A program made the position numbers and the translations under genes. Source: a virus. Taken from it: 64,000 nucleotides of DNA. Below, in pieces: positions 8,601 through 64,000 of this stretch; within the stretch, counting starts at the first letter, position 1; every line of letters begins with the position of its first letter. The DNA lies in the IMG/VR virus record IMGVR_UViG_3300042868_011620, positions 32,001 to 96,000 of that record, one strand, 5' to 3'. Below the pieces are notes generated by a model. That model was not told where the DNA came from and ran no database searches. It saw only the letters and a program-made list of their open reading frames with translations.

Positions 8601-11600
8601 GACTCCCCAATTTTGATAAATGACAAAGATAAAGCCTTTGCTGCTTCTTGAGAGTCATCTCCTTCAACTCCTAATTGTTTAAGAATATTTAAGCTTTGAG
8701 CTAATACTGATTGTGTATCAGTAGCTCCAGCTATATCTGTAAATAAATTAGGATTATTTTTTAATAAACTTGGTATGCCCTGAGTAATTGATTGCTTAGC
8801 TGGTGCGGTAACGCCTGTACCACTAAATCCTTCTTCTAGTAATGATTTCGCAGAAGTTAAAACGCTTAATTCTTGCGCAACTAAACCTGCTCTTTCTTCA
8901 TATTTTAAATTTATTAAACTTTCAATTTTTGATCTATCTTCGGCTGATACTGTTAAGCTATTAGACAAGGCTGAGAGTTCTCTTTGTTTTGCAATCTCAG
9001 CATTTGCGGAAATTTGAGCAAAGCTAGCTATTTTATTTTTATAGATAGACTCTGCTCCTAGCTCTCTAACATATTTTTCGAGAGCAATGTTTCTTGTTTC
9101 AACTGCCTCTTTCTCTTCTCTGCTTGTTGCTTGCAATTGCTCGCGAGTTTTCTTAACTATATTAATAGCAAAAGTTTTACCTATGCCTTGATCTTTAATT
9201 AAATCTGATATTAAATTTTCAGATTCTATAATCTTAGTTAATTCTCCAACGCTTTTACCAGCAATTAATGATTTTACTTTTATAGGATCATTTGTACTTT
9301 TATTGAGTAAAGATTCTACTTTTTTACCAATAAAATCTGAATTAATCGCTGTATAGTCTGGAGTTGCGGCTGCGGCTGCGGCTGCTTCGTTTTTTAGCTG
9401 TAATTCACTTTTCTTAGATGGGGTGCTCTCCCTATACATTCCACCCTTACCACCCATCATACCGTCTGTTAGTTGAACGGGCTTTAACTGAACTTCTCTG
9501 ATGGATGATTTTAAAAAGTCATCCATTTCTTGTTTTGTAACAGATCCAGCCTGTAACATTTCAAAAGCTTTAATAAGCTGCTCTTTCATTGGATCATCAA
9601 TAGATAGCCCAGCTCTCATTGACGTTTTCTCTCCACTTGCACTCTCAAATTGATAAGTCCCTTTTGTTAATTGAGCTACATATTCTTCCGCCTGTTTTTT
9701 AATAGAAGTTTGTTCCGTTGGATTATAATCTTGAAGATTAGCCGCAGCATTTTTTGCAGCATCAGCCAAAGAATTAGCAGCTTTTGCAGCCCTTTCATTT
9801 GCTCCAGAAAACTCGTAATATAGTTCTTTACCGCCTTTAAATACTTCGTATGCAATACCCAAAGCAGCTCCAACTTGTCCTAGTTTACCAAAAGCAGCTG
9901 TTAATTTATTACTAGATGATGCAATGCTAGAAAATCCACTCATTGCAAAAGCGGCAGTGCTCACATTAGATAAAGAATCAGCTACTATACTGGTATATTT
10001 TCCAATTTGAGAAGCGCTATCTTTAAAAGCGCCACTTAATAAAGATAATCCTCCTTGAACTGCAAAAATTGTGCCAAGCATTTTTTCACTAGACATTCCA
10101 GATTTTGGAGGTTCTGGTGGAGCTGCATTTATTTGAGCATTTGGTCTAGCTGGAGTTGGAAGTGGAAGTTTAGCGGGAGCGGCAGCAGCAGCGGGAGCCG
10201 AAGCAGACATCGCTTTTGTAACAGCAGCAGCAATTGATGCGGCAATTGCATTTGTTGCAGCAGTCACCGCTGCTGATTGATTTACTGGCGGTTGAGTATT
10301 AGAGGTGGAGTTTCCTGGTGTTTGAAATGACCCCATGGTAGCATAGTTTGGCACGAATCCATTAGCAGCACCATAAGTCATTGGATTGGCTCCCTCTTTA
10401 CGCGCTCTAGCAATGCCCTGAGAGCCTCCCATTGGTTCGTCAATACGATTAGCCACCATGAGTCCATTGGGATTCATGGCATTCTTTAATGATGCGTTCT
10501 GATCAATGTAAATTTGAGAAGCTGGAACGCCAGCACTCATTTCTCTTCCAATAGCAGCTTGAACTGGATCAGCAAAGTTTGGCAAAAATCCTTTAGCTCC
10601 AGATTTAGTAGTAGCTTTAACAAGAAGTTTAGCTAATTTATCTTGAAGAGTTTTGCTAACTTTTAAACCATAACTCTCAGCACTTTGAACAAACTTTACT
10701 GCATTTGGGCCAGCAAAAGATGCTGAATACATTGCGCTATCTTTAATGGTTTTAAAGATGCCCTCAGTCTCTAATCCATGACCAGCATCTCCTAAAACTA
10801 AATCTGCAAAAAATTTCTCTGGAAGAACCTTGAATAAATTACCAATGGTGCCAGTGGCGCTTCTATATTTTTGAGCTTTGGCGGATCTTTCTCTCTGTCT
10901 TCTTGCGTACTCTGGATCTTTTCCTAGTGCTACTGTAGTGTTTGCAAAGTTTGGAATGAATCCTCTAGCAGATCTTTCAGTAGTATTTCCTTTGGCAGCT
11001 TCTTTTAAACGAAAGGCGCTAATTTTTTGAGCCATGCTGCTTAAATTTGGATCGCTTAAATCATTTTTAAAATCAGCAGCTAGCATCTCTGGATTTATAT
11101 TGCCAGCGATAGAAGCTTTTAATATTCCGCCTCTTTCCATAGACCCAACAAATGAATTTAACTTGGTTCTACTTGGCAAATCAAATGTTTGACCAATATT
11201 TGGCGGCACTTCCATAGCCGACTGAAATACGCTTTCAAAAACTGTTCCAAAAGCAGCTTCAATAGTTCCAGGATTTAAATTACTTTTTATTCCTGCTGCA
11301 AATCTCTCTTCTTGTATGATATCAGGATTAAATCCTAAATTTTTAGCATAGTTCATTCCAGCATTAATAATTCCCTTTTCAACTTCAGGGTACAAGTCAT
11401 CTGATGGTTTTCCAATAATTGGAATACCCTTTACAACTTCTCTTTGATTTCCAACTAAAAATGATGAGACTTTTCCTTTTGAATTTGATGGATAAATCAT
11501 TCCAAATTCAGCTACAGCCCCAGTTGTATCTGCGCGTCTTGCAGTTACACCCTCTTGTTTATTAGATTTATAATCGTCTCTAATTTGAATAGCATTTTGT

Positions 11601-14203: not shown

Positions 14204-14240
14204 TGTCCTTGCTCCTTTAAGAACTTTACACTAAAAAATC

Positions 14241-15218
14241 CTAACCATCCATCAATTTCATCATTTGTTCCATATTAAGACTTCCGCCATTTTGCCTAAC
14301 AGCATCTTCTAAAGAAATAGTTCGAGCATTAGGATCTATTTGCTTCAAATCTTCTTTTGTAGCTCCAAAAACTACTGTTGATTCAGAGTCCCTAGACTGT
14401 CTTTGAGATGACTGCTTGCCAGTCTTTTTGCTTTCAGAGAATCTTAAAATTGCAGATGGATCTTTTTTAATATTGTCTGGAAGATCTTCGTTATATTGAA
14501 ATATATTAAAAAATACTCTAGCATACAAAGCTAGTTTTAATTGAAAGATTGATAATTGAATAATTGGCTTACCATAAAATGCTGACAAGTGCTCTGTTTG
14601 AGAAAGATACATGTTAAAGAAATCTCTCAAAACACAATGTTGAATATTGTCTTCGCTCAGTCTAGCATTAGAAGTTGAATAAATTTTAACTAAATAATTT
14701 ATATTATAATCTTCCAAATCGTCAAACTCTTCTTGCGAAAATAAATGTTCCTTGAGAGTTTCGTCTTTGAATAAAATATATCTTATAAACTCTTCATTTG
14801 TTCTGGTAGAAGCGTAAGACTCTGCTGTATTACCAGAAATTTCTTTTTTAGCGGACAGCAATTTGCTTAATTCATAATTCTTCTCAAGAATAGTTTTATT
14901 AAAATTACTTTTTTGAGATGGTAAGTAAGCTGCTTTTTGAGACTCTTTTAATTTAGTAATTTCAAACTCTAAATTAGCAATATTTAAATCATCAGAGTCG
15001 CTCCACAAGTCGTCATTTTTTAGTCTAACTAAAATTTCTTTTTCACTTGGTATTCCCTTTTGTAAAGCAATGTTTTTATATTTATCATAATAGCGATGAA
15101 TATATCTCTGATCTCTAATTGAGAAATGCTTCAAGTACGCTGGTCTTCCAGCGTACTCGAATTCTGTATAGCCATCAAATATTTCTCCAACTATAGAAAT
15201 ATACTCTTCTTCGCTCAC
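14241..15218 (-). CDS. hypothetical protein, possible tail assembly chaperone
   Basis: 325-aa ORF directly upstream of the TMP. Confidence 0.5.
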   Translation of the reverse strand: MSEEEYISIVGEIFDGYTEFEYAGRPAYLKHFSIRDQRYIHRYYDKYKNIALQKGIPSEKEILVRLKNDDLWSDSDDLNIANLEFEITKLKESQKAAYLPSQKSNFNKTILEKNYELSKLLSAKKEISGNTAESYASTRTNEEFIRYILFKDETLKEHLFSQEEFDDLEDYNINYLVKIYSTSNARLSEDNIQHCVLRDFFNMYLSQTEHLSAFYGKPIIQLSIFQLKLALYARVFFNIFQYNEDLPDNIKKDPSAILRFSESKKTGKQSSQRQSRDSESTVVFGATKEDLKQIDPNARTISLEDAVRQNGGSLNMEQMMKLMDG

Positions 15219-15970
15219 AATTCATTAGTTTCGAGTCGTTTCATCAATCCATCAAAAGAGTCTTTGTCAGATGTTTGGTTGAAGAACCAAAATGCTAAAA
15301 TTGTTGCAGCCTTTTTAGTAATCAAAAAGTACAAAGGATCTTCGCCCTCTTCTCTCTTGTAGTACTCTTCCATCTTGTCTTCAAAAGATCCCTTGCCAAA
15401 AAATGGCTTTGGATTTTCATCACCCTCTTCTTGAACATGAGTGAGCATAATAACATACCAGAGAATGAGTCGATTCTGCGCTCTAACATCTGCTGTATGA
15501 TCAAACAAAGATTGATAGTTGCTTTCAAACTCTACAATTTGGCGGCGAACTTTAACAAGATCAGTAGAAATTTCCTCTACTCTTTCTTTTTGTTTGTCAG
15601 TTTTATTTTGAACAATTTCTAGACGAGAGTATTCATTTTGTAAATCAAAAATCTTTTTGTAAGAATCCACTAAGGACTGAGCATCATCTTCACTCATTAA
15701 GCCGCCAGTATCGCTGTACTTTTTGGCTAACATAGCTTTTGTCAAAATGCCTTTCTTGACACATCGACTCATCTCAACACTAAACTCTAACTCAGCCTCT
15801 TCAAGCTCTCTGCGCGAGGGGCGTTTTAGTTTAATAACTACTGGCACCTTTTCTTTAACTGTTTTTTTAGTGATAGTTTCTTCACCAGTTTTCTTATCTT
15901 TCTTAGAAGACTCGATTACTTTTTCCACTTCTTTATCTACTGTAAAATTGTATAGTTCTTTAAATTCCAT
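15215..15970 (-). CDS. hypothetical protein, possible tail assembly chaperone
   Basis: 251-aa charged helical ORF whose stop overlaps the next start. Confidence 0.5.
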   Translation of the reverse strand: MEFKELYNFTVDKEVEKVIESSKKDKKTGEETITKKTVKEKVPVVIKLKRPSRRELEEAELEFSVEMSRCVKKGILTKAMLAKKYSDTGGLMSEDDAQSLVDSYKKIFDLQNEYSRLEIVQNKTDKQKERVEEISTDLVKVRRQIVEFESNYQSLFDHTADVRAQNRLILWYVIMLTHVQEEGDENPKPFFGKGSFEDKMEEYYKREEGEDPLYFLITKKAATILAFWFFNQTSDKDSFDGLMKRLETNEL

Positions 15971-15985
15971 ATGCCTTAATATATT

Positions 15986-16771: not shown

Positions 16772-17349
16772 TTATGAAACTTCCCAAAGACGTACAGAGC
16801 ATTATAGATGCTCAAACTCCAAAACTTTTACGAGTTCCTTTTGAGCAAGCTCTTCAAAAAAGATTTGAAACTTTAAAAAATCAAATGATTAATGAGTTTT
16901 TGAATCACCCAGTTTCTCAAGAAATTTCAGGTGGTCCAGAAGCATCAAATTCGAGCGGTTCTCTTGGGGGATATGGAAATTTATTTTCATTCATTGGATT
17001 TGAAGAGGATGATGAACCTCTCAAACCAATTTTAGAACAGCTACAAGCAACAAACTTTATATACTCTGGAGAGATTGCTTCTGGAGTTAAATTCTCAATA
17101 CTACTTCCAACAGCTAAGGAGATTTTTGAGGTTACTCCCATGCCATGGGCCTCTGGTAGAAGTTGGGCCAAAGGAATCGAAAGTGGAATCTCTGGACTAG
17201 GATTTTATTTAAAATTAAAAAGTAAAAATAGTAGATCTGGCGAAGGAATACAAACTAGTGTAAAAGCTAATACTAGAAGATTTAAAAATCAACAATACAT
17301 TTCTCTTTTGATTAATAAATACACTAACTTATTCGCTCAATTAAAATGA
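16768..17349 (+). CDS. putative neck/tail completion protein
   Basis: 193 aa; position between head-closure-like and terminator-like genes. Confidence 0.45.
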   Translation: MIMKLPKDVQSIIDAQTPKLLRVPFEQALQKRFETLKNQMINEFLNHPVSQEISGGPEASNSSGSLGGYGNLFSFIGFEEDDEPLKPILEQLQATNFIYSGEIASGVKFSILLPTAKEIFEVTPMPWASGRSWAKGIESGISGLGFYLKLKSKNSRSGEGIQTSVKANTRRFKNQQYISLLINKYTNLFAQLK

Positions 17350-31376: not shown

Positions 31377-32056
31377 TTGATGATGTCGTTTTGATAAATG
31401 ATTTCTTTCGCCTTGTTTTTGAGCATGTTCTTTAAATTTTTGATTTGCTTGTAGCCAGCTTTGCGGTTTTTTTCGTTAGTTTTATAACCCATGAAATTTG
31501 CCACATCTTCTTCTGATTTTTTTTCTAAAAAAAGCATCACATACACTGTGTAATGCTCTGCTGACAAAGCGTTTTTCATCATCTTGTTCAACTCTTCTAG
31601 TGATGAATCAAAATGAATGTAAGAGTCTTGCTTTTGGTCAACTTCTACGAGATGATTCTCAATAGAGAGAGGCATTTTTATTCCGTAGCCAATTTTTTTT
31701 AATTTTGACCATTTAGCATAGTCACTGCAAGATTCTTCTTGATTGCCAGATGAATTTTTAGCACACAGTGTGCCGCCCATGTTGAATTCGCAGTTCATGC
31801 AGGGACGCACATAGTTTGTGTAGTTGTTTCGGATAATATTTTTGATTTGATTGCTAGTGATTCGCGCAATCCATGGTTCAAGGGGTTTTGTTTCATCCCA
31901 CATGTGCCACTTTTTATAAATGTGCAATTTGACCATTTGAGATACATCCTCAAAATCAAACCAAGCAATAGCTTTTAGCTGCCATTTTTTTTGGAACTTG
32001 CTGACTACCGCATCAATTGTTGCATAGTGTTCAGTGTAGGAGTTGTTATTGGACAC
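31373..32056 (-). CDS. sigma70/ECF-like phage sigma factor
   Basis: DFEDVSQ..LHIYKKWHMWD...WIARI..NQIKN (region 2-like) and C-terminal HTH; GTG start at 32056 preferred over 32131. Confidence 0.7.
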   Translation of the reverse strand: MSNNNSYTEHYATIDAVVSKFQKKWQLKAIAWFDFEDVSQMVKLHIYKKWHMWDETKPLEPWIARITSNQIKNIIRNNYTNYVRPCMNCEFNMGGTLCAKNSSGNQEESCSDYAKWSKLKKIGYGIKMPLSIENHLVEVDQKQDSYIHFDSSLEELNKMMKNALSAEHYTVYVMLFLEKKSEEDVANFMGYKTNEKNRKAGYKQIKNLKNMLKNKAKEIIYQNDIIK

Positions 32057-49739: not shown

Positions 49740-50231
49740 TTATTTATTTTTTTGTGGTTTAATGTAAAAGTTATACCCCTTACCATTGCAAGCTGAACAA
49801 CAAACTTCTGGATAGTCTTCTACTCCAGATCCATCGCAAATCGGACAGAAATTATTCATTTCCATTAGTTCCCGTTCATAAGCATCCAATTTTGATTGTT
49901 TAACTGCATCAGACAGGCACATAAAAACCTCTTCGCCGTCAACCAAAACTTCATCATAATGATCAGGCTCCCAACGTCCTCCATTGGACATTTTGATAGT
50001 AGATCGAATCCAAACTTGTTTATTAGTAGTCTTACTCAAGATGCCACGAACAGGAACTTCCATCATGACGGAATAATAGAAAAATTCCCTATCTGTATAA
50101 ACGCCTTCTTTTAATTTTAAATTCCAGTCAGAAACCTGCTGGGCGAGATTCAAGTCTGCGTCTGTAGCAGCAAGAAACTCTTCTAATTCGCAAGATAATT
50201 GGGGCGTGTCAATGGTTTTGATTTTGATCAT
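49740..50231 (-). CDS. hypothetical protein with DnaJ-type zinc finger
   Basis: CPICDGSG...CSACNGKG. Confidence 0.7.
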   Translation of the reverse strand: MIKIKTIDTPQLSCELEEFLAATDADLNLAQQVSDWNLKLKEGVYTDREFFYYSVMMEVPVRGILSKTTNKQVWIRSTIKMSNGGRWEPDHYDEVLVDGEEVFMCLSDAVKQSKLDAYERELMEMNNFCPICDGSGVEDYPEVCCSACNGKGYNFYIKPQKNK

Positions 50232-50382: not shown

Positions 50383-50583
50383 TCAATTTGTTTTTCTAGA
50401 ATTCCAAGAGTCAAGTGCAGCTTGAAGATTGTGATGCCAAGGACCATTGCAAGCGCATTCTTCACACTCTACTCTGTATCCTCCTGGATAAGTGTGAAGC
50501 GAGATGGCTGGAGTTTCCTCGTCATTGATTTTGTCTTGATCAGTTATCCCGCAGAATGGACAGTGTTGTAATTTTTGACTCAT
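50383..50583 (-). CDS. Lar-like (restriction alleviation) zinc-finger protein
   Basis: LQHCPFCG...VECEEC..NGP...A...WNSR. Confidence 0.65.
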   Translation of the reverse strand: MSQKLQHCPFCGITDQDKINDEETPAISLHTYPGGYRVECEECACNGPWHHNLQAALDSWNSRKTN

Positions 50584-50586
50584 AAA

Positions 50587-50787
50587 TTATTCATTTTGTT
50601 TAAAGTAATCTATTGTAACATCCTCTACAAAATCGGCTACAGAATAATATACAGAATTCCTTACAGAATCATCTACAGAATCCACTACAAAACTCCATGC
50701 AGAATTCCATCCAGAAAATTTTATACAAGTATGTATACTATTTCTTAAAGAATCCCTTAAATCGTCGATGGCAGTATCATGTATCAT
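50587..50787 (-). CDS. array microprotein
   Basis: SVxxSV repeats, ends DYFKQNE. Confidence 0.75.
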   Translation of the reverse strand: MIHDTAIDDLRDSLRNSIHTCIKFSGWNSAWSFVVDSVDDSVRNSVYYSVADFVEDVTIDYFKQNE

Positions 50788-50969
50788 TTTGTTTTAAAGT
50801 AATCTTTTACAGAACTCCTTACAACATCCCATACAGAATACCTTACAGAATCCAATATAGAATCCGATACAGAAGCCTGTACGGAACATCTCACAGGCCA
50901 ATTTACAGAATAATATAAAGAATTCCTTACAGAACTCAATACGGCTTTATTAATGCTGGAGTTAATCAT
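50784..50969 (-). CDS. array microprotein
   Basis: Ends DYFKTK. Confidence 0.75.
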   Translation of the reverse strand: MINSSINKAVLSSVRNSLYYSVNWPVRCSVQASVSDSILDSVRYSVWDVVRSSVKDYFKTK

Positions 50970-50973
50970 TGCT

Positions 50974-51252
50974 TTATTTTATCAGAGTTCGCAATCTATG
51001 CAACAAGTATTTTATTGGTGAAATTGGTTTTGGTTCTTCGATTGCTGGACGAGCTAAGGCATAGCCGCCAATGCGTATCAGCAATAGCATATCATTGTGG
51101 TATTCCGCTGGAATGCCCGTAAAATCAAATGTTGCAGTTACTCCATAACCATGTGCGGTCACATAGTTTTTTATTTTTAGAATTGGCGGGATGTCCACAG
51201 TGAATGATGGATTAGAGTCGTATATCGATATGTTTTCGGCAGTTTCAGTCAT
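50974..51252 (-). CDS. unrelated hypothetical protein inserted in the array
   Basis: 92 aa, no SVxxSV or DYFK motif. Confidence 0.65.
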   Translation of the reverse strand: MTETAENISIYDSNPSFTVDIPPILKIKNYVTAHGYGVTATFDFTGIPAEYHNDMLLLIRIGGYALARPAIEEPKPISPIKYLLHRLRTLIK

Positions 51253-51437
51253 AATTTTTGTTTAAAGTAATCATTTACAGAAGCTTTTACAGAATCCGAT
51301 ACAGAATTCTTTACAGAATTCTTTACAGAATTATATACAAAAATCCTTACGGTCTCCCTCGCAGCTTTCATTACAGAATGCCATACAGCTTTCCTTACAG
51401 AATCCCATACAGCTTGACTAACGATAGAATCATTCAT
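51249..51437 (-). CDS. array microprotein
   Basis: Ends DYFKQKL. Confidence 0.75.
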   Translation of the reverse strand: MNDSIVSQAVWDSVRKAVWHSVMKAARETVRIFVYNSVKNSVKNSVSDSVKASVNDYFKQKL

Positions 51438-51645
51438 TTTGTTTAAAGTAATCTCTTATAGAGTCTCTTACAGTAGCTTTTATAAAATCGTTTACAGCGC
51501 TCTCTACAGAACGTACTACAGAATTATATACAGGACACCGTACAAACCCCTCTATATAATGCCATGCAGAGTCCCTTGCAGAATTTTCTACAGAATCCAT
51601 TACAGACTCCAATGTATTTTCATAAACGATAGAATAATTCATCAC
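51430..51645 (-). CDS. array microprotein
   Basis: Ends DYFKQNE. Confidence 0.75.
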   Translation of the reverse strand: MMNYSIVYENTLESVMDSVENSARDSAWHYIEGFVRCPVYNSVVRSVESAVNDFIKATVRDSIRDYFKQNE

Positions 51646-51710
51646 TTTATTTTATCAGAGTTCGTTTGAAGTAATTTTTTATCATTTTTAATTACTGAGT
51701 AGGATTGTAT

Positions 51711-51965
51711 CTATAGTAGCTCAAGGTCTTGTGTTGTCAAGGAGTTTTGTTCAAAGTAATCTCTTGCAGAACCCCACACATCATGCCTTAGAGAGGTCTC
51801 TACATCTTCCTCTATACAATCCCATCCAAAGTCCCATACAGATCTGTCTATGATCCTTGCAGAACGTACTATAGAATTATATACAGATTCTCCTATAGCA
51901 TCATAGGCAAATTTCCATACGTAATCATCGATATTAAAATTTTTAGTGTTGTTTTTATTATTCAT
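51711..51965 (-). CDS. array microprotein
   Basis: DYFEQN plus extension. Confidence 0.75.
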   Translation of the reverse strand: MNNKNNTKNFNIDDYVWKFAYDAIGESVYNSIVRSARIIDRSVWDFGWDCIEEDVETSLRHDVWGSARDYFEQNSLTTQDLELL

Positions 51966-52149
51966 TTTGTTTAAAGTGATCTACTACAAAATCATATACA
52001 GAATCTTTTATATTAGTCCAAACAGGATCTCCTACAGCACTCCTTGCATGAATCCTCGCAGGCAGCTGTATATTCTCTTTTATACAATTCCACACAGAAG
52101 CTTCTACATGATCATTCTTTATAGAGCACCAATATCTTATACTATTCAT
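51958..52149 (-). CDS. array microprotein
   Basis: Ends DHFKQNE. Confidence 0.75.
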   Translation of the reverse strand: MNSIRYWCSIKNDHVEASVWNCIKENIQLPARIHARSAVGDPVWTNIKDSVYDFVVDHFKQNE

Positions 52150-52375
52150 TTTTTAAGCGTTTTTGTTTGAAGTACTCTACTGTAGTGTCTCTTACAGAAC
52201 TCTCTACAGACCTTCCTATAGTTCGCCATACAGAATGCTCTACAGGATGCTCTACAGAATAGCTGACAGCATCCGCTATAGCATCCTCTACATAATCCTT
52301 TATCCCATCGTTTACAGAATTTCCTACAGAATGATATATAGAATACCACACGGCAATGCTTGTATTATTATTCAT
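52142..52375 (-). CDS. array microprotein
   Basis: EYFKQK. Confidence 0.75.
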   Translation of the reverse strand: MNNNTSIAVWYSIYHSVGNSVNDGIKDYVEDAIADAVSYSVEHPVEHSVWRTIGRSVESSVRDTTVEYFKQKRLKNE

Positions 52376-52556
52376 TTTGTTTAAAGTAATCTATTGTAGA
52401 ATCTATCACATAAATCTCTACCCAATTTACGACAGAAAACTTTGTAATATTCCATGCAGAAAGTACTATAGGGCCTCTTACAGAACTCCATATAGAACAC
52501 CATGCAGAATCTTCTACAGAAATCCACGCAGCTTTATAAACAGAGAAGTTATTCAT
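52368..52556 (-). CDS. array microprotein
   Basis: MNNFSV start, ends DYFKQNE. Confidence 0.72.
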   Translation of the reverse strand: MNNFSVYKAAWISVEDSAWCSIWSSVRGPIVLSAWNITKFSVVNWVEIYVIDSTIDYFKQNE

Positions 52557-52563
52557 TGCTTTA

Positions 52564-52779
52564 TTAATTTTCAAAGTAATCTCTTGCAGTACCGCTTGCA
52601 GCATCCCTTATTGAAACCTTTACGGAATTACCAATAACAATCCATATAGACTCATGTACAGAAACTCTTGCAGGATTTGTTACAAAATCGAATACAGACC
52701 TCCATACTAATCTTCTTACAGAATATGTAATGCTATAACCTATATCATCTTTTATAATATGCATTACTTTATTGTTCAT
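52564..52779 (-). CDS. array microprotein
   Basis: MNNKVM start, ends DYFEN. Confidence 0.72.
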   Translation of the reverse strand: MNNKVMHIIKDDIGYSITYSVRRLVWRSVFDFVTNPARVSVHESIWIVIGNSVKVSIRDAASGTARDYFEN

Positions 52780-52990
52780 TTTGTTTGAAGTAATCTCTCG
52801 TAGCATTTGCTATATCAAACCATACAGAAGCTCTTGCTTTAAAATCTCTTCCAGTAGTAAATCTTACAGTATAACTAGTAGAATTAAACAAAGAGTCCCA
52901 CATAGAAGCTCTAAAACTATTCCATATCGAAATTTCTACAGAATCCTGTACTTTTTTAGTGATAAAAAAATCATTCATTGGTTTATCCAA
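52769..52990 (-). CDS. array microprotein
   Basis: Ends DYFKQNEQ. Confidence 0.75.
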   Translation of the reverse strand: MDKPMNDFFITKKVQDSVEISIWNSFRASMWDSLFNSTSYTVRFTTGRDFKARASVWFDIANATRDYFKQNEQ

Positions 52991-53205
52991 TTTTGATTGA
53001 AGTAATTAATTGTACAGTTTGCTATAGGAATCTCTATAGACGGTTTTACCGTGTCCCACACAGCGTTCCTGATGTATTGACCAGCACCATTCCATACTCC
53101 ATCTCCTACAGATTCTTCTATAGTATCCACTATAGGATATGCCAAGGAATCAGATATTAATTTTGACGGACAATATCTCACATTCTCTCTTATAGTTTTA
53201 TTCAT
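52975..53205 (-). CDS. array microprotein
   Basis: NYFNQN. Confidence 0.75.
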   Translation of the reverse strand: MNKTIRENVRYCPSKLISDSLAYPIVDTIEESVGDGVWNGAGQYIRNAVWDTVKPSIEIPIANCTINYFNQNWINQ

Positions 53206-53395
53206 TTTTAAAGTAATCTTTAGTAGCCTCTCTTGTAAAATCCTGCATAAGAGAACCTATAGGGTCTTCCGAACCGTGTCCAATAGGATAAATTACAGTG
53301 AGCAACACACATACATGTACAACCTCTTCTACAGCGTGCCACACTTTAACTCTTAAACTTCGTTCTACAGTTTCGCTAATGGTAGAATCATTCAT
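53198..53395 (-). CDS. array microprotein
   Basis: Ends DYFKNE. Confidence 0.75.
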   Translation of the reverse strand: MNDSTISETVERSLRVKVWHAVEEVVHVCVLLTVIYPIGHGSEDPIGSLMQDFTREATKDYFKNE

Positions 53396-53600
53396 TTTGT
53401 TTAAAGCAATCTCTTGCAGAGTCTCTTACAGCCTTAAATACAGAATTAATTATTACGCTTCTTGTGCAATTATATACAGGCTTGTTTACAGAAACTCCTA
53501 CAGCCCTCCATATAGGATTTTGTATAGAACTTCTTATAGAACTCTCTACAGGAACTCTACAGAGATCATTCACAGCTTTATAAATAGTAGAATGATTCAT
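53388..53600 (-). CDS. array microprotein
   Basis: Ends DCFKQNE. Confidence 0.75.
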   Translation of the reverse strand: MNHSTIYKAVNDLCRVPVESSIRSSIQNPIWRAVGVSVNKPVYNCTRSVIINSVFKAVRDSARDCFKQNE

Positions 53601-53800
53601 TGTTTAAAGTAATTTTTTGCAGAACGATGTATAAAAATTGTAAAATGCTCTGTACAATTCTGCGTAAAACTACGCCACGCTGATTGTACAGCATCATTTC
53701 GCACAGAAGTAAACAAACAATGTCTCAGTGGTTTCCATATGTCGCTAATTACAGCTTGCTGCACAGAATCTCTTACAGAGGCTTTGATATTAGTATTCAT
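53597..53800 (-). CDS. array microprotein
   Basis: MNTNIK start, ends NYFKQ. Confidence 0.72.
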   Translation of the reverse strand: MNTNIKASVRDSVQQAVISDIWKPLRHCLFTSVRNDAVQSAWRSFTQNCTEHFTIFIHRSAKNYFKQ

Positions 53801-54002
53801 TTTTAAAGTAATCACTGGCGGCATCCTCCACTGCAAAACCGATTGAACTCCATGAAACATACCTCATGGATTCTCTCACCACAGCTCTAACATCTCCCCA
53901 TACTTGATTCCATATAGAATATGTTATAAAATTTCTTGCAACCTCGCCCGTGCATTCTCGCACATTTTTTTGAACAGCTTGGTTAATAGTGGATTTGTTC
54001 AT
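53790..54002 (-). CDS. array microprotein
   Basis: Ends DYFKNEY. Confidence 0.75.
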   Translation of the reverse strand: MNKSTINQAVQKNVRECTGEVARNFITYSIWNQVWGDVRAVVRESMRYVSWSSIGFAVEDAASDYFKNEY

Positions 54003-54223
54003 TTTTGTTTAAAGTAATCTAGCGCAGCATCATCTATATCAGACCATACATCATCTATTACTAAACTCCTTACACGATCTATTGTCCAATCTCTTAGATT
54101 GCCCCGCACAGAAGTTCTAATGTATCTCCATGTAGGTTGTCTTAGTTCCCCTAGCTTATATCCAGAATTTAATATTGAATTTGCAACATAAATAGTTTTA
54201 GGTTCACTTATTCTATTATTCAT
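53999..54223 (-). CDS. array microprotein
   Basis: Ends DYFKQK. Confidence 0.75.
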   Translation of the reverse strand: MNNRISEPKTIYVANSILNSGYKLGELRQPTWRYIRTSVRGNLRDWTIDRVRSLVIDDVWSDIDDAALDYFKQK

Positions 54224-54441
54224 TTTTGTTTAAAGTAATTAAAAAGAGAATCCTCTATAAAATTCTCTATCTCCATTAGCGTAACAACTGTGGGAGAGGC
54301 CACTATAAGTACTCTACAAGATTCTGCAACAGAATTCTTTACAAAACGATGAACAATATCCTCTATGGAACCCCACATTAAACTTCCCGCAGCAATTCTT
54401 GTGGAGTATTTAATGCTGCCTGATGATATTTTATTTTTCAT
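54220..54441 (-). CDS. array microprotein
   Basis: Ends NYFKQK. Confidence 0.75.
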   Translation of the reverse strand: MKNKISSGSIKYSTRIAAGSLMWGSIEDIVHRFVKNSVAESCRVLIVASPTVVTLMEIENFIEDSLFNYFKQK

Positions 54442-54649
54442 TTTTAAAAAAATCTTCTACAGAGTATTCTATCGAAAGATTTGCATAAGTTCCTATAGTA
54501 GTCCATACAGGGAACCTTACAGAATTCCATACAGATTCTCTTAGAGTAAAATGTGTACACTCTACTACAGAGCTATATACAGCATAACCTACGCGCCTTG
54601 TAACTATACCAGCAGTAGAGTGCTGCGTTGCAATAATAATATCACTCAT
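54431..54649 (-). CDS. array microprotein
   Basis: Ends DFFKNEK. Confidence 0.75.
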   Translation of the reverse strand: MSDIIIATQHSTAGIVTRRVGYAVYSSVVECTHFTLRESVWNSVRFPVWTTIGTYANLSIEYSVEDFFKNEK

Positions 54650-54906
54650 TTTTTTGTTTTAAAATAATTAATTGATGCGCTCTCTATAATTGTTTGAATG
54701 GGGCGATTCAAGCCATCATCTATTAAACCACGAACTGATGAATGCCACACATTATACTTAACAGAATCGTGAACAATGTCCTCTACGGGACGCAATGTAC
54801 AACGATGAACACAAAAGTAAACAGAAAAATAAACACAATTCCAAACAGATTTTCTAGTCGATTTATTAGTGGGAACGTTTAGGGATTTTAATGATTTTTT
54901 ATTCAT
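54646..54906 (-). CDS. array microprotein
   Basis: Ends NYFKTKK. Confidence 0.75.
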   Translation of the reverse strand: MNKKSLKSLNVPTNKSTRKSVWNCVYFSVYFCVHRCTLRPVEDIVHDSVKYNVWHSSVRGLIDDGLNRPIQTIIESASINYFKTKK

Positions 54907-55130
54907 TGTTTAAAATAATTATGAATTTCCTCGCTTACACAATTACTTGTGGAATCTCTTACAGAGCGCCCTATAGAATAAAAAACATTAATCCTTAAAA
55001 AATCCCTCATAAAACTTGATGAAACTTCCAATACCAGTTCATCCACAGTCTTCTCTACATTATCCCATACAGCATAATATGCTGAATCTACTGCGCGAAT
55101 CACTACATCTTCATCGGTTTTATCGTTCAT
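54903..55130 (-). CDS. array microprotein
   Basis: Ends NYFKQ. Confidence 0.75.
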   Translation of the reverse strand: MNDKTDEDVVIRAVDSAYYAVWDNVEKTVDELVLEVSSSFMRDFLRINVFYSIGRSVRDSTSNCVSEEIHNYFKQ

Positions 55131-55362
55131 TTTGTTTAAAGTAATCTTTTACATGAGGATTGATGGGAAGCTCTATAGAACTCCATACAGAATCCCAATA
55201 AGATTTTCTTTCGGAAATTCTTATAGAATCGAGTATAGATTCCCTTAGAGAGTAACCCGCAGAGTTGCATACAGAATGGTAAACAACTCTTTGAGCAGAA
55301 TTCCACATAGCGTGCTCTACACAATCCCACACAATTCCAGCAATAGCAGAGTCGTCTTTCAT
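55120..55362 (-). CDS. array microprotein
   Basis: Ends DYFKQNER. Confidence 0.75.
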   Translation of the reverse strand: MKDDSAIAGIVWDCVEHAMWNSAQRVVYHSVCNSAGYSLRESILDSIRISERKSYWDSVWSSIELPINPHVKDYFKQNER

Positions 55363-55556
55363 TTTGTTTTAAAGTAATCCTCTACAGATCGCTATACAGG
55401 AATATATACAGAAATATTTACAGAAATCTTTACAGAACCTAATATAGAACCTAATACAGAACCCCTTACAGAACTCCATATCGAATCCCATACAGGACTC
55501 CTTAAAGAATCAAATACAGACTTCGTCACATATTCATAAAGGGTAGAGTCATTCAT
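55359..55556 (-). pseudogene. array unit with in-frame TAG
   Basis: MNDSTLYEYV...IPV*RSVEDYFKTK; TAG at 55392-55394. Confidence 0.75.
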
Positions 55557-55755
55557 TTTGTTTAAAGTAATCGTAAGAGGCTTGACTAATGCAATTTTTT
55601 ATAATTTGTTCTGAATGCCAAGTGCTGTCCCATACTGGATGCCATACAGAAGTTGATACTCTATTAACAACACATTTCCATACAGGATTATCTACTGATT
55701 TTGTCATAGACATTTGTATAGAAAAAGTAGTCGTGTCACTTAATTTATCAATCAT
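55549..55755 (-). CDS. array microprotein
   Basis: Ends DYFKQNE. Confidence 0.75.
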   Translation of the reverse strand: MIDKLSDTTTFSIQMSMTKSVDNPVWKCVVNRVSTSVWHPVWDSTWHSEQIIKNCISQASYDYFKQNE

Positions 55756-55945
55756 TTTGTTTAAAGTAATCTTGTGTACACTGCATCGCAGTATTTCGCG
55801 CAGAATGAATCGTGCGATTCTGTATGTAATGCCCGACAGTATTCCATAGATGAATCTTTATAGAACGCCAAACAATTCTTTGAACAGGATTTTGCGAAGA
55901 ACCCCATAAAATATTTCGTGTAGTTTTGTTTATTTCGTCAGTCAT
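55748..55945 (-). CDS. array microprotein
   Basis: MTDEIN start, ends DYFKQND. Confidence 0.72.
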   Translation of the reverse strand: MTDEINKTTRNILWGSSQNPVQRIVWRSIKIHLWNTVGHYIQNRTIHSARNTAMQCTQDYFKQND

Positions 55946-56396
55946 TTTTAAAGTAATCAATTACAGAATCATTTACAGGCCGCTTTATACGAGTCTGCAC
56001 ATAAAACACCACAGGATTTTCTACACCGTTCCATACTTCAAACCTTACAGAAAAATCCATAGAATCCCAGAAAGAATAATCTATCAATGTCTTTAGACAA
56101 TCCACTGTCTTTATAGAATCCACCGTTGACTGGTTCATTCCATATTTTATTTTATTTGTTTTTATTTTATTTGTTTCAAAGTAATCTTCTATAGAAGCTT
56201 TTATAGGTATCCATGGTATACCTCTTATATCGTAAAGAGAACAAATGGACCCATACGCAGGATCTCCCACTGCATCTTCATTTTCCACATATTCTGTTAT
56301 AATATCCTCGACAGAGTTCCATACGCAATCTCTTGCGAAAGCACATGAATAGTTTTCGATAGAAAATTCTATAAGTTTATTTAATTTATCGTTCAT
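55938..56396 (-). CDS. fusion of two array units
   Basis: Internal DYFETNK...MNQST and terminal DYFKND. Confidence 0.72.
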   Translation of the reverse strand: MNDKLNKLIEFSIENYSCAFARDCVWNSVEDIITEYVENEDAVGDPAYGSICSLYDIRGIPWIPIKASIEDYFETNKIKTNKIKYGMNQSTVDSIKTVDCLKTLIDYSFWDSMDFSVRFEVWNGVENPVVFYVQTRIKRPVNDSVIDYFKND

Positions 56397-56604
56397 TTTT
56401 TTGTTCAAAGTAATCAACAACAGCATCTCCCGCACTATACAACACTTTAAGACTTGCGGATTCTCCTGCGTAAAAATCCCATACAAAATTTCTCGCAGAA
56501 TATGCTACAGACTGAGTGATGGCTTTCCAAGCGGGATAATCTCTACCAGCATCTGTTACTGAATACCAAACGTCACGGTCTACGTATTTATTAATTGTAT
56601 TCAT
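56386..56604 (-). CDS. array microprotein
   Basis: Ends DYFEQKNER. Confidence 0.75.
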   Translation of the reverse strand: MNTINKYVDRDVWYSVTDAGRDYPAWKAITQSVAYSARNFVWDFYAGESASLKVLYSAGDAVVDYFEQKNER

Positions 56605-56783
56605 TTTTGTTTGAAGTAGTCAACGACAGAAGCTTGTACAGGATTACTCACAGTGCGACTGATGGATATGGAAATATCATCCCATGTAGCATAATCTACA
56701 TACTTCCATATGATATAACCTACATTCTTCCAAACAGTAAACTTCGCAGAATTTAAAATTTTTCTCACATCGCCGATATTCAT
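56601..56783 (-). CDS. array microprotein (first unit)
   Basis: Ends DYFKQK. Confidence 0.75.
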   Translation of the reverse strand: MNIGDVRKILNSAKFTVWKNVGYIIWKYVDYATWDDISISISRTVSNPVQASVVDYFKQK

Positions 56784-56793
56784 TTTATATAAT

Positions 56794-56831
56794 AAAAAAG
56801 GCCCCCTGAAGTTTGATGTCTTCAGAGGGCC
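56794..56831 (-). terminator. intrinsic terminator between the DUF6745-like operon and the array
   Basis: GGCCCTCTGAAG...CTTCAGGGGGCC-TTTTTT. Confidence 0.8.
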
Positions 56832-56844
56832 ACTGTTTTAGCGA

Positions 56845-57183
56845 TTAATCTGCCACGTTGCGTTTGGCTTGAGCAATGTAATCGTATTCTTGTTGAATGC
56901 CAATTACATAAGTGCCAGGCACAATGTCAATGGTAGTGTGACGCTCCGACATGACGCAGCTAATGTCAGTTGCTACAGTGCTGTTCATGTAGCGCTTGCC
57001 AGTCTTCTTAGAGTTCCAGAAGGTGACTCCAGGCTTATTAGCAATAACGTGATGGTTGCCAGTAACTTCGCTGTTGGCGACAATCACTACTTTACTAGTG
57101 TGATTCTCAGCAATAGCGTCATCAGGCAAGCCTGCGCACTGAGCCACAATGCATTCGCCGTGAAGGATGATTTTCTTTTTCAT
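56845..57183 (-). CDS. His-motif beta protein typically paired with DUF6745 genes
   Basis: HGE, SEVTGNHH, RH..I...PGTY....QQEYD....RNVAD; pairing recalled, not searched. Confidence 0.7.
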   Translation of the reverse strand: MKKKIILHGECIVAQCAGLPDDAIAENHTSKVVIVANSEVTGNHHVIANKPGVTFWNSKKTGKRYMNSTVATDISCVMSERHTTIDIVPGTYVIGIQQEYDYIAQAKRNVAD

Positions 57184-57205
57184 ATGTTTATTTATTGTTT
57201 AATTA

Positions 57206-58165
57206 TTAAGCGATACCAACGATTTCATGATCCGAGAGATCAATGTCTCCGAGACGCTCAGCAATTGCTTGCTGAAGGTTCTTACACTCTGGAGAGACAC
57301 TTTCGACATGCCACACTCCAACAGTTTGATTGAGCATCTTCAGGTGAGGAGCATAATCAATGCCTGGGTACAAAGCGGCCATGTCCCAGAGTTCATACTC
57401 ACTCTTAGTCCACCACTCTTCAGTAGGATAGTTTTCGTAAGAGTCAATCTTCTTGCCGAAAGAAAGCATTCTTTCAACTCCGAATTTGCGAACAAACTCC
57501 ATTTTGTGGTCTGCATTGTCCAGAGTATTGTACTGATCAAGAGTGAGTTCATTGCTTGGAGTAACTGCCAACCACTCAGGAACTCTCGTTCCGTTGAGGA
57601 TGAAGATGCTGTTCAATCCGTAACCATTGTAAGCAATGGCTGGACCACCGTCACAGTGAGTCACATTGTCTTCGTTGAGGTGAATCACAGTAGGCTTTTG
57701 ACTCACTACCACAGCAGTGGGCATAGGATAAATCTGTCCCAGTTTGTGAGTAGCGTGCCAAATCTCGTAGCACTCATTAGCCTCTTTGAAGTCGATGCCG
57801 ACTTCGTCGCGGAAGAAGTCGTAGAAGCTCCAGACATTCGCATCGAACGATCCGTTGAGGTAGGGAGTGGTGTAAGTTTCGATTGCCATTTTAACACCTT
57901 GAACAAAGTATTCTTCAAGCTTTGATGGAATGTCTGCTGCTTCTACTCCAGCTTTCAAGTAGTGACAAGCTACCCATGCTTCCACAGGATTGTTCACAAT
58001 GATTACTGGAGTAGGCTCAACCTTGAGCAAGTGAGTTTGCACTTTGTGAATGATGCTCACAGTCTCATCATAGTCGAGACGATCAGTATTAATGCCAATC
58101 TTCAGCCACTTCTCAGTGTACTCAGACATTTTGGCAGTTTGTTCGGGAGTGAGGGATTCGATCAT
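57206..58165 (-). CDS. DUF6745-like protein
   Basis: LTPEQ......KWL.IG, W.FYDFF, HCDGGPAIAY, NGTRVP motifs; family recalled from memory. Confidence 0.7.
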   Translation of the reverse strand: MIESLTPEQTAKMSEYTEKWLKIGINTDRLDYDETVSIIHKVQTHLLKVEPTPVIIVNNPVEAWVACHYLKAGVEAADIPSKLEEYFVQGVKMAIETYTTPYLNGSFDANVWSFYDFFRDEVGIDFKEANECYEIWHATHKLGQIYPMPTAVVVSQKPTVIHLNEDNVTHCDGGPAIAYNGYGLNSIFILNGTRVPEWLAVTPSNELTLDQYNTLDNADHKMEFVRKFGVERMLSFGKKIDSYENYPTEEWWTKSEYELWDMAALYPGIDYAPHLKMLNQTVGVWHVESVSPECKNLQQAIAERLGDIDLSDHEIVGIA

Positions 58166-58175
58166 TTTATTTAGT

Positions 58176-58466
58176 TTATTTTAGGTTGTTGTTGGTGGAT
58201 TCTTGAAACAGTTCAGTCATTTGTTTGAGCCTACTGTTTGCACTCTCAAGCTCTTTGTCAATGACAAAATCAGGTCGAACAGTAAATATTTTATCACATT
58301 CAAGCATTTCAATTTCAAGCTTGATTTTCTCAATCTCGTAATAATGTTGAGTGAGAGCGCCTCCTGCTACGGGAGGCTTATCTGCTGTAACAGTAGAAGC
58401 ATTGTTTCTTACGATAATTAATGTAAGTACTGTTACTACAGAGGTGGCGAGGAGAATTGCTTTCAT
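58176..58466 (-). CDS. secreted/membrane hypothetical protein
   Basis: MKAILLA start just after TTGACA-N16-TATTCT (58499-58472). Confidence 0.6.
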   Translation of the reverse strand: MKAILLATSVVTVLTLIIVRNNASTVTADKPPVAGGALTQHYYEIEKIKLEIEMLECDKIFTVRPDFVIDKELESANSRLKQMTELFQESTNNNLK

Positions 58467-58510: not shown

Positions 58511-58936
58511 CTAAAAATAAGATTCGCCAAGGGGAGCTTTATCGCACATCAAAGATTCAATGATTTTTGCAGCGTTGTCATGAAAGCTGGGATATTGAAG
58601 ATGAGAGAATTCTTGTCCATGTTTAGCGATCAAAGCATTCCAGTCAGCTAACGCTTCTGGAGAAATTTCCACTTTTACTGGTCGAGCCTCACTAGCTTCT
58701 CTGATAATTTGAATCAAAGATTCACTCTTGTCGCGAGCAGCAGCAGCAATTTCGGCGCGGCGAGGATAAATAGTACTACGCATGGAAATTCCTCCTTTGT
58801 CAGACACTTTTACCAACCACCAACCAGCAGAGAGTCCTTGATATGCCCAAGGATCATTGATTGGCACATATTTTTTCCCCTGCTTTTTGTAAACAATCTC
58901 TTCAGATCGATCTTGAATGTTTGAGTAAGCTGTCAT
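58511..58936 (-). CDS. hypothetical protein
   Basis: 141 aa after TTGACG-N16-TAAGAT. Confidence 0.7.
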   Translation of the reverse strand: MTAYSNIQDRSEEIVYKKQGKKYVPINDPWAYQGLSAGWWLVKVSDKGGISMRSTIYPRRAEIAAAARDKSESLIQIIREASEARPVKVEISPEALADWNALIAKHGQEFSHLQYPSFHDNAAKIIESLMCDKAPLGESYF

Positions 58937-63011: not shown

Positions 63012-64000
63012 TTAACCAGAAACTGTCCAAAATTTACCCGTTGCTATTGCTCTATTGCAGGTAGCAGCTCCAGGATTGCTTGCGATATTAATTGTTTGTG
63101 CGCCAGAAGCAGTTCCCAAACCTGAGAATATGTCATTAAGAGCGGCAGTTGAAAGTTTACAGTTGGCATAACTAATAGCTCTTCTTATTCCACTTGTACG
63201 ACCTGAGCATAAAGAGCGACAATTATCAAACATACTACTCGTGTCTGTTACAAGCGCAGTATTGAACTGTGGTATAGCTTGTAAAGATTGACAATTATTA
63301 AACATGCTGCTCATACTAGTTACTGCTGCTGTATTAAGAGAAGAAACGCTTTGCAAAGAATAACAATTACTAAACATGGCCCCCATAGTAGTCACTGATA
63401 CGGTATTGAAAGAAGGTGAGCTTTTTAAAGAATAACAACCATTAAACGTTGCCCCCATATTTGTTACTGTCGAAATAGGAAACAACGGGACGCTCTCAAG
63501 ACTGTGGCAATTATAAAACATTAAACTCATGTTTGTCAAAGCGCTTGTGACAAATAGTGGAACACTCTGAAGACTAAAACAAAAATAAAACATCTGACTC
63601 ATATTTGTTACGGCAGTTGTAATGAATAACGGAACACTCTGAAGATTATAACATTGCGTAAACATTAAGCTCATATTAGTTACAGATGAGGTATTAAATA
63701 GCGGGACACTTTTAAGAGAATAACATTGAGTAAACATTCCATTCATAGTCGCTACATTCACAGTATTAAATGAAGGAATGCTCTGCAAAGAAAAACACTG
63801 ATTAAACATAGAACTCATGCTAGTTACAGATAGAGTATTAAATAGCGGAACACTTTTTAAAGCGTGACAACTTTGAAACATTGCTAACATATCTGTAACA
63901 TTAGAAGTATTAAATAATGATACTGTTTGCAAAGAGTAGCATTGATAAAACATATTGCTCGTACTAGTGAGCGATTCTGAATTAAGCAGCGATACACTTT
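63012..64000 (-). CDS. BspA/DUF285-type 24-aa repeat surface protein (5' end beyond window)
   Basis: MFxxCxSLxSVPLFNTxxVTxM repeats; frame stays open to the window edge. Confidence 0.85.
   Translation of the reverse strand, partial: SVSLLNSESLTSTSNMFYQCYSLQTVSLFNTSNVTDMLAMFQSCHALKSVPLFNTLSVTSMSSMFNQCFSLQSIPSFNTVNVATMNGMFTQCYSLKSVPLFNTSSVTNMSLMFTQCYNLQSVPLFITTAVTNMSQMFYFCFSLQSVPLFVTSALTNMSLMFYNCHSLESVPLFPISTVTNMGATFNGCYSLKSSPSFNTVSVTTMGAMFSNCYSLQSVSSLNTAAVTSMSSMFNNCQSLQAIPQFNTALVTDTSSMFDNCRSLCSGRTSGIRRAISYANCKLSTAALNDIFSGLGTASGAQTINIASNPGAATCNRAIATGKFWTVSG

Follow-up and report, generated by a model that had tools for sequence, protein, structure and literature searches.

What relation, if any, holds between a phage protein that lacks the repeat tract of its relatives and a long row of small free-standing genes, a few hundred nucleotides away, that encode very similar repeats? 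The question is raised by the 64,000-nucleotide stretch of viral DNA analysed here (positions 32,001 to 96,000 of IMG/VR record IMGVR_UViG_3300042868_011620; the window), whose minus strand carries, in this order, a gene for a 319-residue DUF6745-type protein (the scaffold), a gene for a 112-residue protein (the partner), a hairpin, a 6.2-kb array of mini-genes (the units) and a Lar-family gene. We suggest that the locus is a gene-fission, or detached-tract, form of a phage and bacterial module consisting of a DUF6745 protein and its partner, an explanation to which, taken as a whole, we give an even chance of being right. Its parts differ in strength: that the units derive from a detached tract and remain functionally linked to the pair is very probable, that they physically bind in trans we rate, from structure modelling, slightly below even, and a role in counter-defence, argued from analogy, is tentative. 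The elements on which the argument turns are the following.

57206-58165, minus strand: DUF6745-type scaffold, repeat-less, 319 residues (open reading frame, Pfam, PHROG, AF2 model, BFVD)
56845-57183, minus strand: small all-beta partner with a histidine motif, 112 residues (open reading frame, family alignment, AF2 model)
56800-56831, minus strand: terminator-like hairpin between the partner and the first unit (consensus scan)
50587-56783, minus strand: array of tract-type mini-genes, 27 open reading frames with 28 units, 60-152 residues (open reading frames, unit profile)

A preliminary description of this locus had assigned the scaffold to DUF6745 from the letters alone, and the assignment is borne out by several searches. 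The Pfam profile PF20530 matches the scaffold with an E-value of 8.4e-6 and a score of 25.7 bits, 1.3 short of the curated cut-off of 27, and aligns residues 136-235 with profile positions 33-129 of 206; the same profile reaches 94 bits in the relative P0134 and 111 bits in the relative at locus L154, and the family phrog_31813 matches the scaffold at E 3.9e-6. A word-indexed search returned 191 homologues, and precomputed annotation places PF20530 in 81 of the best 120 of these. The AlphaFold2 (AF2) model of the scaffold, built from 64 sequences, has a predicted local distance difference test (pLDDT) score of 93.5, and in BFVD Foldseek pairs it with a Microcystis phage LMM01 protein annotated as DUF6745 (E 1.9e-16, probability 1.00, TMq 0.59). 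Nothing convincing was found for the fold in the PDB (best Foldseek E 0.44; best VIA wide Z 4.0). PADLOC-DB 2.0 (2023 library) holds no family that matches the scaffold, the partner or one unit at E ≤ 0.1, and PADLOC together with NCBIfam gave only compositional matches to SD repeats.

The scaffold has both of the flanks that usually enclose the tract, as the preliminary description had noted, and no tract: between 'VIIVNNP' and 'VWSFYDFF' lie only about 45 residues, among them the segment 'KLEEYFVQG', which is conserved in the scaffold family as (V/L)..(Y/F)F.G(K/N), and no repeat of period four is present. The accompanying statement that DUF6745 proteins usually carry a tract of the SVWDSVRDSV type is right for many members (P0121, P0122, P0125, P0134) and wrong for this subfamily, in which, judged by length, the repeat-less form is the norm, because all of the best 120 homologues are of 283-354 residues. 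In P0121 and P0122 the tract stands between the N-terminal part and 'SFYDFF'. BLASTP against these two proteins and a hidden Markov model (HMM) of the scaffold family find that the scaffold shares with tract-bearing DUF6745 proteins the N-terminal region, the FYDFF motif and the C-terminal domain in collinear order; against P0122, scaffold residues 1-122 and 113-236 align, with the tract in between.

The same tract is what the units resemble. A profile built from 25 units of the window found four matches among longer proteins, the best two being P0121 (E 1.6e-21) and P0122 (E 1.8e-17), both DUF6745-type. Searched with HMMER against 1.84 billion representative sequences, it gave 1972 matches at E ≤ 1e-3, 295 of them at E ≤ 1e-10. 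Among the best 150 of the 1972, 78 fit the scaffold-family HMM as a split N-terminal and C-terminal pair with the tract at HMM positions of about 80-105, so that in these DUF6745 relatives the tract occupies the place of the scaffold's short linker; the remainder of the 150 are members of a second family of 200-280 residues, a few very long proteins and eight free-standing units (65-94 residues) from relatives of this phage. The matches span positions ~5-64 of the 70 in the profile; leader and tail are features of the free-standing form only. Tracts occur in several flavours (xDSV, xNEV, xDKV, xNQV) with valine fixed at every fourth position throughout, which argues for selection on the protein and not on a DNA repeat. 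Profile comparison of this kind argues that the link between the units and the DUF6745 tract, predicted by the preliminary description, is real.

Free units and internal tracts are also distributed in a complementary way. We sampled 9 viral loci found with the scaffold, 19 found with P0121, 5 found with P0139 or P0130, 80 metagenome loci found with the scaffold alignment and 22 bacterial or archaeal loci found with P0134, and scanned them in six frames with our own HMMs of scaffold, partner and unit. A scaffold-type gene was present in 112 loci, which form 43 clusters at 80% identity, 39 of them repeat-less. At least two free units were found in 17 of the 26 repeat-less clusters with at least 3 kb of flank (the window's own cluster is one of the 17), and units were found in 11 of the 17 with at least 8 kb; the partner lies next to the scaffold in 25 of the 26. 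Tract-bearing viral clusters, in contrast, have free units in 0 of 4 (partner in 3 of 4) and tract-bearing bacterial loci in 0 of 12, or 0 of 11 with at least 3 kb of flank (partner in 6 of 12); among the bacteria concerned are Dehalococcoidia (with two copies in a single genome), Xenococcus, Granulosicoccaceae, Mycobacterium parascrofulaceum, Acidobacteria and Polyangiaceae. For 17 of 26 against 0 of 15 (4 viral clusters and 11 bacterial loci), Fisher's test gives p = 3e-5, and with viral clusters only p = 0.026. The expectation that arrays go with tract-less DUF6745 genes therefore agrees with what the sampled loci contain.

Complete genomes follow the same division. The repeat-less genomes G003 (173 kb) and G006 (47 kb) have 36 unit matches, all in one region, and 17, respectively, while in the tract-bearing genome G007 (54 kb) all 6 unit matches fall inside a single gene of 580 residues. 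Arrays stand within a few kb of the pair even in lineages whose scaffolds are only 45-60% identical. These distant arrays likewise have junctions with overlapping stop and start codons, and one is of the NQV flavour; their leaders (MTLKDSV, MKRSLNNSV, MTLENKV, MTSTNNSV) and tails (IKDLIKSHDT, SNKINETIT, NKLGQYGFGK, QKLKEYDFNK, AQMLEYRYEC) are lineage-specific.

In the window itself, the scaffold gene is followed by its partner and then by the roughly 28 free-standing units that had been counted from the letters: 27 tract-type open reading frames, one of which is a fusion of two units. The span first proposed for the system, 55938-58165, takes in the scaffold and the partner correctly and only the first three genes of an array that runs on to 50587. 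Three genes within the array depart from the common form.

55938-56396, minus strand: two-unit fusion gene inside the array, 152 residues (open reading frame)
55359-55556, minus strand: array unit with one in-frame TAG (translation)
50974-51252, minus strand: unrelated 92-residue gene embedded in the array (open reading frame)

Each unit consists of an MN-type leader, a core with a period of four residues and a (D/N)YFKQ tail. When 25 clean units are aligned, mean identity is 26%, and only the start methionine and the phenylalanine of the tail are invariant. The period is nevertheless pronounced: where position i is valine or isoleucine, position i+4 is one of the two with a probability of 0.51, compared with 0.19 in shuffled sequences (z = 17), and the periodicity is visible at lags of 8 and 12 residues too. 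Stop and start codons overlap by 4, 8 or 11 nucleotides at 24 of the 27 array junctions; the ATG of the next unit lies inside the last codons of the preceding one, with no Shine-Dalgarno sequence, an arrangement that fits translational coupling, as we infer from the junctions. Because the junctions overlap, the DNA that encodes the tail of a unit also encodes the leader of its successor. The reading frame is intact in 26 of the 27 genes, and the unit with the in-frame TAG is otherwise intact as far as its DYFKTK tail. In a search with the DNA pattern of the junctions, contigs with multiple matches came only from the clade of this phage; the remaining 32 of 36 stretches look like chance, and the match is single in 33 of the 36.

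The embedded 92-residue gene is joined to the unit before it by an ATGA overlap and has no match in Pfam or PHROG; the array at locus L005 holds a relative of it at 16979-17299. We also considered whether the units could be DNA mimics, a reading that we rejected: their net charge, -0.5 on average, lies anywhere between -9 and +8, and they are not uniformly acidic.

The second family with a tract, of 200-280 residues, comprises P0148, P0157, P0176, P0194, P0224 and others (loci L162-L171). In its members the tract is followed by a domain of the pattern '..AYIGSLFP..W.Y...YPFQSAVDLW..GLVPSFDG..WRLHSG' ('PSFDGxxWRLH' for short), which belongs to no Pfam family. Several start with MCxFFS, so that an N-terminal cysteine is possible, and the family is found in Dehalococcoidia, bacteria of the candidate phyla radiation and one archaeon.

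The partner is the second constant element of the module. It carries the motif 'SEVTGNHHV' and ends in 'IQQEYDYIAQAKRNVAD'. No Pfam family matches it and phrog_27831 does so with an E-value of 0.0024 and 18.9 bits; its family amounts to 408 proteins, without a name or a Pfam entry. Ten columns are invariant among 48 sequences (H8, G9, P20, A36, H45, V46, H82, G90, V110 and D112), and an alignment of the partner with the neighbours of P0121-type genes likewise has 10 invariant columns. The conserved H..G, GH.H, H and terminal V.D, together with the position directly beside the DUF6745 gene, mark it as a member of the pair. From the invariant residues, three histidines and a terminal aspartate, one might guess at a metal site. 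In the AF2 model (pLDDT 85.8) the protein is all-beta apart from a helix at its C-terminus. For its fold the PDB offers nothing convincing (best Foldseek E 0.2; best VIA Z 3.9), the best match among PDB sequences has E 0.67, and the ESM Atlas returned only unnamed viral clusters.

The pair and the array evolve in very different ways. Compared with loci L005, L002 and L004, the ratio of non-synonymous to synonymous substitution rates (dN/dS) is 0.02-0.07 for scaffold and partner (0.07 for the scaffold, against L002; 0.02-0.03 for the partner), with dS saturated or high, and both genes are under strong purifying selection. Among the units, 7 of 26 have a counterpart in L005 at no less than 58% identity in global alignments (by BLASTP six are above 58% and the seventh is at 48%). 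The dN/dS of these seven is 0.47-3.4 at a dS of only 0.02-0.6, a combination suggestive of recent exchange together with selection that is either relaxed or diversifying. Turnover by whole units can be followed in a close relative, L065, which is 96% identical in nucleotides across the pair: the two-unit gene at 55938-56396 is absent there, with breakpoints at unit borders, one block is inserted, and the distal third of the array is replaced. Unit borders are where contigs from four lake sequencing runs break, diverge or take alternative joins, and lake-run contigs also carry paired, compensating indels of 1 nucleotide within the array. Near-identical tract-bearing phages differ in tract length, with a range of 365-516 residues; in the prophage-like contigs L010, L013, L021 and L024 the DUF6745 gene has stop-to-stop open frames of 372-516 residues and tracts of very unequal length, which indicates rapid expansion and contraction of the repeat.

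Based on these comparisons, we propose the following. In many relatives, an N-terminal helical region, a hypervariable tract of the form [W/R/G/E]-[D/N/A]-[S/E/K/Q]-V and a C-terminal alpha/beta domain make up one protein, with the partner gene next to it. In this phage the core protein keeps a short linker, the tract having moved out to 27 translationally coupled mini-genes, which would diversify fast and be gained, lost and exchanged as cassettes at the conserved, dual-coding junctions. The mini-proteins would most likely bind non-covalently to the scaffold or to the scaffold-partner core, so that one conserved core could bear many alternative variable surfaces, and the module would probably act in phage-host conflict as a tunable counter-defence. 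The further idea, that a DUF6745-partner core is armed non-covalently with any of ~28 interchangeable, rapidly diversifying four-residue-repeat helices, whose cassettes are swapped between co-circulating phages at the dual-coding junctions for combinatorial recognition or counter-defence, is one that we consider rather doubtful.

Binding in trans was addressed with a three-chain model of scaffold, partner and the unit at 55120-55362, each entered as an alignment, in three runs. The interaction prediction score from aligned errors (ipSAE) had a median of 0.42 (runs 0.34, 0.42 and 0.60), the best of 3 controls reached 0.02, and with chain 1 or the unit replaced the score fell from 0.42 to ≤ 0.02. 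At least 77% of contacts are common to the runs, and the pLDDT of the unit is at least 55. In calibration, 58 of 80 solved complexes and 2 of 110 mismatched pairs attained the mark set for this score, and the band up to 0.60 contains only 7 of the 80 solved complexes together with both passing mismatches. We take the result to raise the odds of binding modestly and do not count it as evidence for binding. Of the earlier claim that the repeat module has been externalised, the evolutionary and genomic sense is thus well supported, and the part that makes the units interchangeable subunits, or decoys, of a three-component complex is plausible but weakly supported.

Several observations weigh against the detached-tract explanation. 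The complex model, which came without a reported interface, lends weak support to binding in trans. A terminator-like hairpin divides the pair from the array: it has 12 pairs, 8 of them G-C, and a T-run, and lies 13 nucleotides past the partner's stop codon and 16 nucleotides before the ATG of the first unit, although it was called by a consensus scan that finds 4 such sites in the region where shuffles lead one to expect 3.7. Given this hairpin, the array may be expressed by read-through or from a signal of its own. Units were not detected at five repeat-less loci with at least 8 kb of flank (L008, L078, L092, L096 and L132) or at L085, with 7.7 kb; the record of L009, of 136 kb and 52% complete, has none either, so the scaffold does not strictly need units. 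Conversely, L149 has an array without a scaffold within its 109-kb record, which is 32% complete. The unit HMM was made from the DSV-type units of the window, and units of other flavours may escape it in both arms of the comparison; the tract-bearing sample is small and partly bacterial. The similarity of the segment EEYFVQ in the scaffold to the DYFKQ of the array, which the preliminary description had noted and which may be a relic of a unit tail, comes down to a loose likeness between 'KLEEYFVQG' and the unit tails of other lineages (KLxEYxF), without lineage-specific co-variation. A dN/dS near 1 is equally expected from relaxed constraint. Similarity between periodic repeats can arise by convergence, and the reversed and column-shuffled unit profiles, at ~0-3 bits against 83.6 forward, are a circular control without weight, the targets having been picked by the forward profile. 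Convergence is countered, though, by the fact that more than half of the best matches in a library of more than a billion proteins belong to the very family encoded two genes upstream of the array. None of three outcomes that would speak directly against the preliminary description (a scaffold outside DUF6745, units without similarity to the tract, arrays occurring independently of tract-less scaffolds) was found.

Of the other explanations, the one that we take most seriously, as possible if rather unlikely, is that the mini-proteins work on their own as small effectors, for instance as decoys of a host factor or as its inhibitors, and that they arose from a duplicated tract, do not bind the scaffold, and lie near it by common origin and a shared accessory region. 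The tract is portable and can do without DUF6745, as it is also found in the 'PSFDGxxWRLH' family of 200-280 residues and in gp54 of the phage Tweety; the hairpin, the repeat-less scaffolds without units, the array of L149 and the weakness of the docking support all suit this account. It does not explain, however, why free units and internal tracts should be complementary (17 of 26 against 0 of 15), nor does it explain the closeness of arrays to the pair in lineages with 45-60% identical scaffolds and the loss of the docking score on replacement of chain 1 or the unit. It is improbable that the array is largely non-functional, a selfish tandem repeat whose by-product reading frames drift neutrally. 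The dN/dS of shared units, the in-frame stop, the mean identity of 26% and long open reading frames in other frames too could be read in that way; yet 26 of 27 reading frames are intact over 6.2 kb of DNA that is rich in A and T, units of such low identity all retain the start codon, the period of four and the tail motif, the same architecture recurs in many distant lineages with different sequences, and the paired 1-nucleotide indels of the lake variants preserve the frame.

Tandem variable cassettes are familiar from Borrelia vls, the silent pilS cassettes of Neisseria, the orphan toxin cassettes of Rhs and contact-dependent inhibition (CDI) systems and the cassettes of phage T4 flanked by promoter early stem-loops (PeSL). 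The array resembles these in having tandem variable cassettes with conserved junctions, a conserved gene adjacent and turnover by cassette, and it would on this likeness be a set of silent or semi-silent donors recombined into the scaffold gene, as in vls/pilS or Rhs/CDI. The gain and loss of cassettes at conserved borders and the varying tract length of near-identical tract-bearing phages (365-516 residues) are in line with such donors, and in one contig of run X3, at a depth of 2.65, the scaffold interior (57496) is joined to the interior of an array unit (54434). That single joint has 21 foreign letters between its two sides and may be a chimeric assembly or a rearranged variant. Unlike donor cassettes, the units here are complete genes, each with its own ATG and stop and with coupling overlaps; no scaffold with a tract occurs in any of the 39 repeat-less clusters sampled or among the best 120 homologues, no unit inserted into a scaffold was seen in those homologues or in the sampled clusters, and the scaffold's linker has no lineage-specific match to unit tails. 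We therefore hold recombination from donors to be very improbable. Least probable of all, and rejected on the phasing of the junctions, is the fusion of the units into one long repeat polyprotein by programmed frameshifting: a TTTAAAC heptamer does occur in the junction and successive units are shifted by a constant frame step, but the heptamer is phased TTT-AAA-C and not X-XXY-YYZ, the next frame is +1 and not -1, every unit has its own ATG, and junction sequences are quite different in other lineages.

The detached-tract explanation can also be set beside systems already described. Tract-bearing DUF6745 proteins (PF20530; phrog_31813; P0121, P0122, P0134 and, at L154, that of Mycobacterium parascrofulaceum) and the DUF6745 protein of Microcystis phage LMM01 have the same N-terminal region, FYDFF motif and C-terminal domain as the scaffold; the tract-bearing ones have the same type of partner gene next to them and a repeat with the chemistry and the period of the units. 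They differ in that the tract is internal, whereas here it is spread over 27 separate coupled mini-genes with leaders and tails of their own. In gene fusion and fission pairs of the 'Rosetta stone' kind, domains fused in one genome are separate in another, and such pairs are used to predict interaction. The tract conforms to this, being fused in some DUF6745 proteins and separate beside tract-less DUF6745 in others, in a complementary manner, with the difference that the detached piece is an internal segment and not a terminal domain, and that it is represented by dozens of diversifying paralogues and not by one gene.

The closest likeness in possible working is to gp54 of Tweety (gp57 of Che8, gp51 of PMC), which has a long hypervariable tract of period four between unique N-terminal and C-terminal parts. 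The tetrapeptide repeats number 48 in the Tweety protein, 26 in that of Che8 and 15 in that of PMC, and the gene is non-essential (PMC2884959); mutants escaping defence change the repeat number and so 'tune' gp54 against gp29/gp30 of the prophage Phrann (PMC9262239). The tract of gp54 is of the type AA[G/W/Q][S/Y], and its repeat is internal, not detached. The protein has no Pfam family and no match to the scaffold or partner HMM, its 6.4 bits with the unit HMM are not significant, and its neighbours gp53 and gp55 do not match the partner HMM; by its sequence, which tells against a closer reading, gp54 is an analogue in possible working and not a relative. The counter-defence role is tentatively suggested by the likeness to gp54, by the Lar-family gene next to the array and by the way in which the units evolve, as if in an arms race. 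In the literature searched, DUF6745 and PF20530 are not mentioned and no tandem arrays of tetrapeptide repeats in phages were found; the detached-tract arrangement is undescribed there.

The Lar-family gene that ends the row can be listed as follows.

50383-50583, minus strand: gene for a Lar-family restriction-alleviation protein (Pfam PF14354)

It scores 31.4 bits with PF14354 against a cut-off of 28.6 and starts 3 nucleotides past the stop codon of the last array unit, so that it resembles a final member of the coupled chain. Just past the array, at 49740-50231 on the minus strand, lies a gene for a 163-residue protein with a weakly matching DnaJ-type CxxCxGxG zinc finger (18.7 bits); in L002/L003 a relative of this protein (L002 13846-14373) divides the array into two blocks. 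Upstream of the scaffold, at 58511-58936 on the minus strand, a 141-residue protein has a weak PADLOC match to type IV Cas11 (E 4.6e-4, 18.2 bits), which is probably spurious; it has no Pfam or PHROG match, and a relative is found in L004 at 15589-15981. A protein with four DUF285 (BspA-like leucine-rich) repeats (E 8e-61) is encoded at 63012-63953 on the minus strand and adjoins the lysis and tail region. The repeat-less loci L008 and L009 are flanked (8681-9969 and 12096-14483) by other tandem paralogues of 80-215 residues with the motifs '..LTSLKG.PK..' and '..LDY(V/I)P', which may be a mini-gene array of another kind at this place.

The window belongs to a tailed lake-water phage and encodes a tape-measure protein of 2852 residues and a terminase, together with ThyX, a nuclease of the staphylococcal (SNase) type, a metallophosphoesterase and a CHAP lysin. 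All or some of this stretch is listed in 24 lake-water sequencing runs, 21 of which hold at least half of the sampled words, and on this count such arrays are common in lake viromes; no RNA run is among the sequencing runs listed. In the GenBank phage collection, blastn with 55900-58200 and tblastn with the scaffold gave 0 matches.

DUF6745 and its partner emerge from these comparisons as a large two-gene module of phages and bacteria, with 191 relatives of the scaffold, 408 of the partner and 1972 matches to the tract at E ≤ 1e-3, and the complementarity of fused and detached forms provides an argument of the Rosetta-stone type that tract and core work together. A low-complexity tract is thereby turned into a testable hypothesis, that of a variable, target-facing element; the only tetrapeptide-repeat phage protein that has been studied is a tunable counter-defence factor. 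Should the units not dock, the arrays would still be among the largest coupled and fast-evolving families of micro-genes seen in phages. Docking in trans, if it occurs, would be a novel means by which a virus endows a single protein with many surfaces, and the arrays would constitute a natural library of small helical binders; if the combinatorial reading is true, such a subunit library would be a route to diversity distinct both from diversity-generating retroelements and from silent-cassette recombination.

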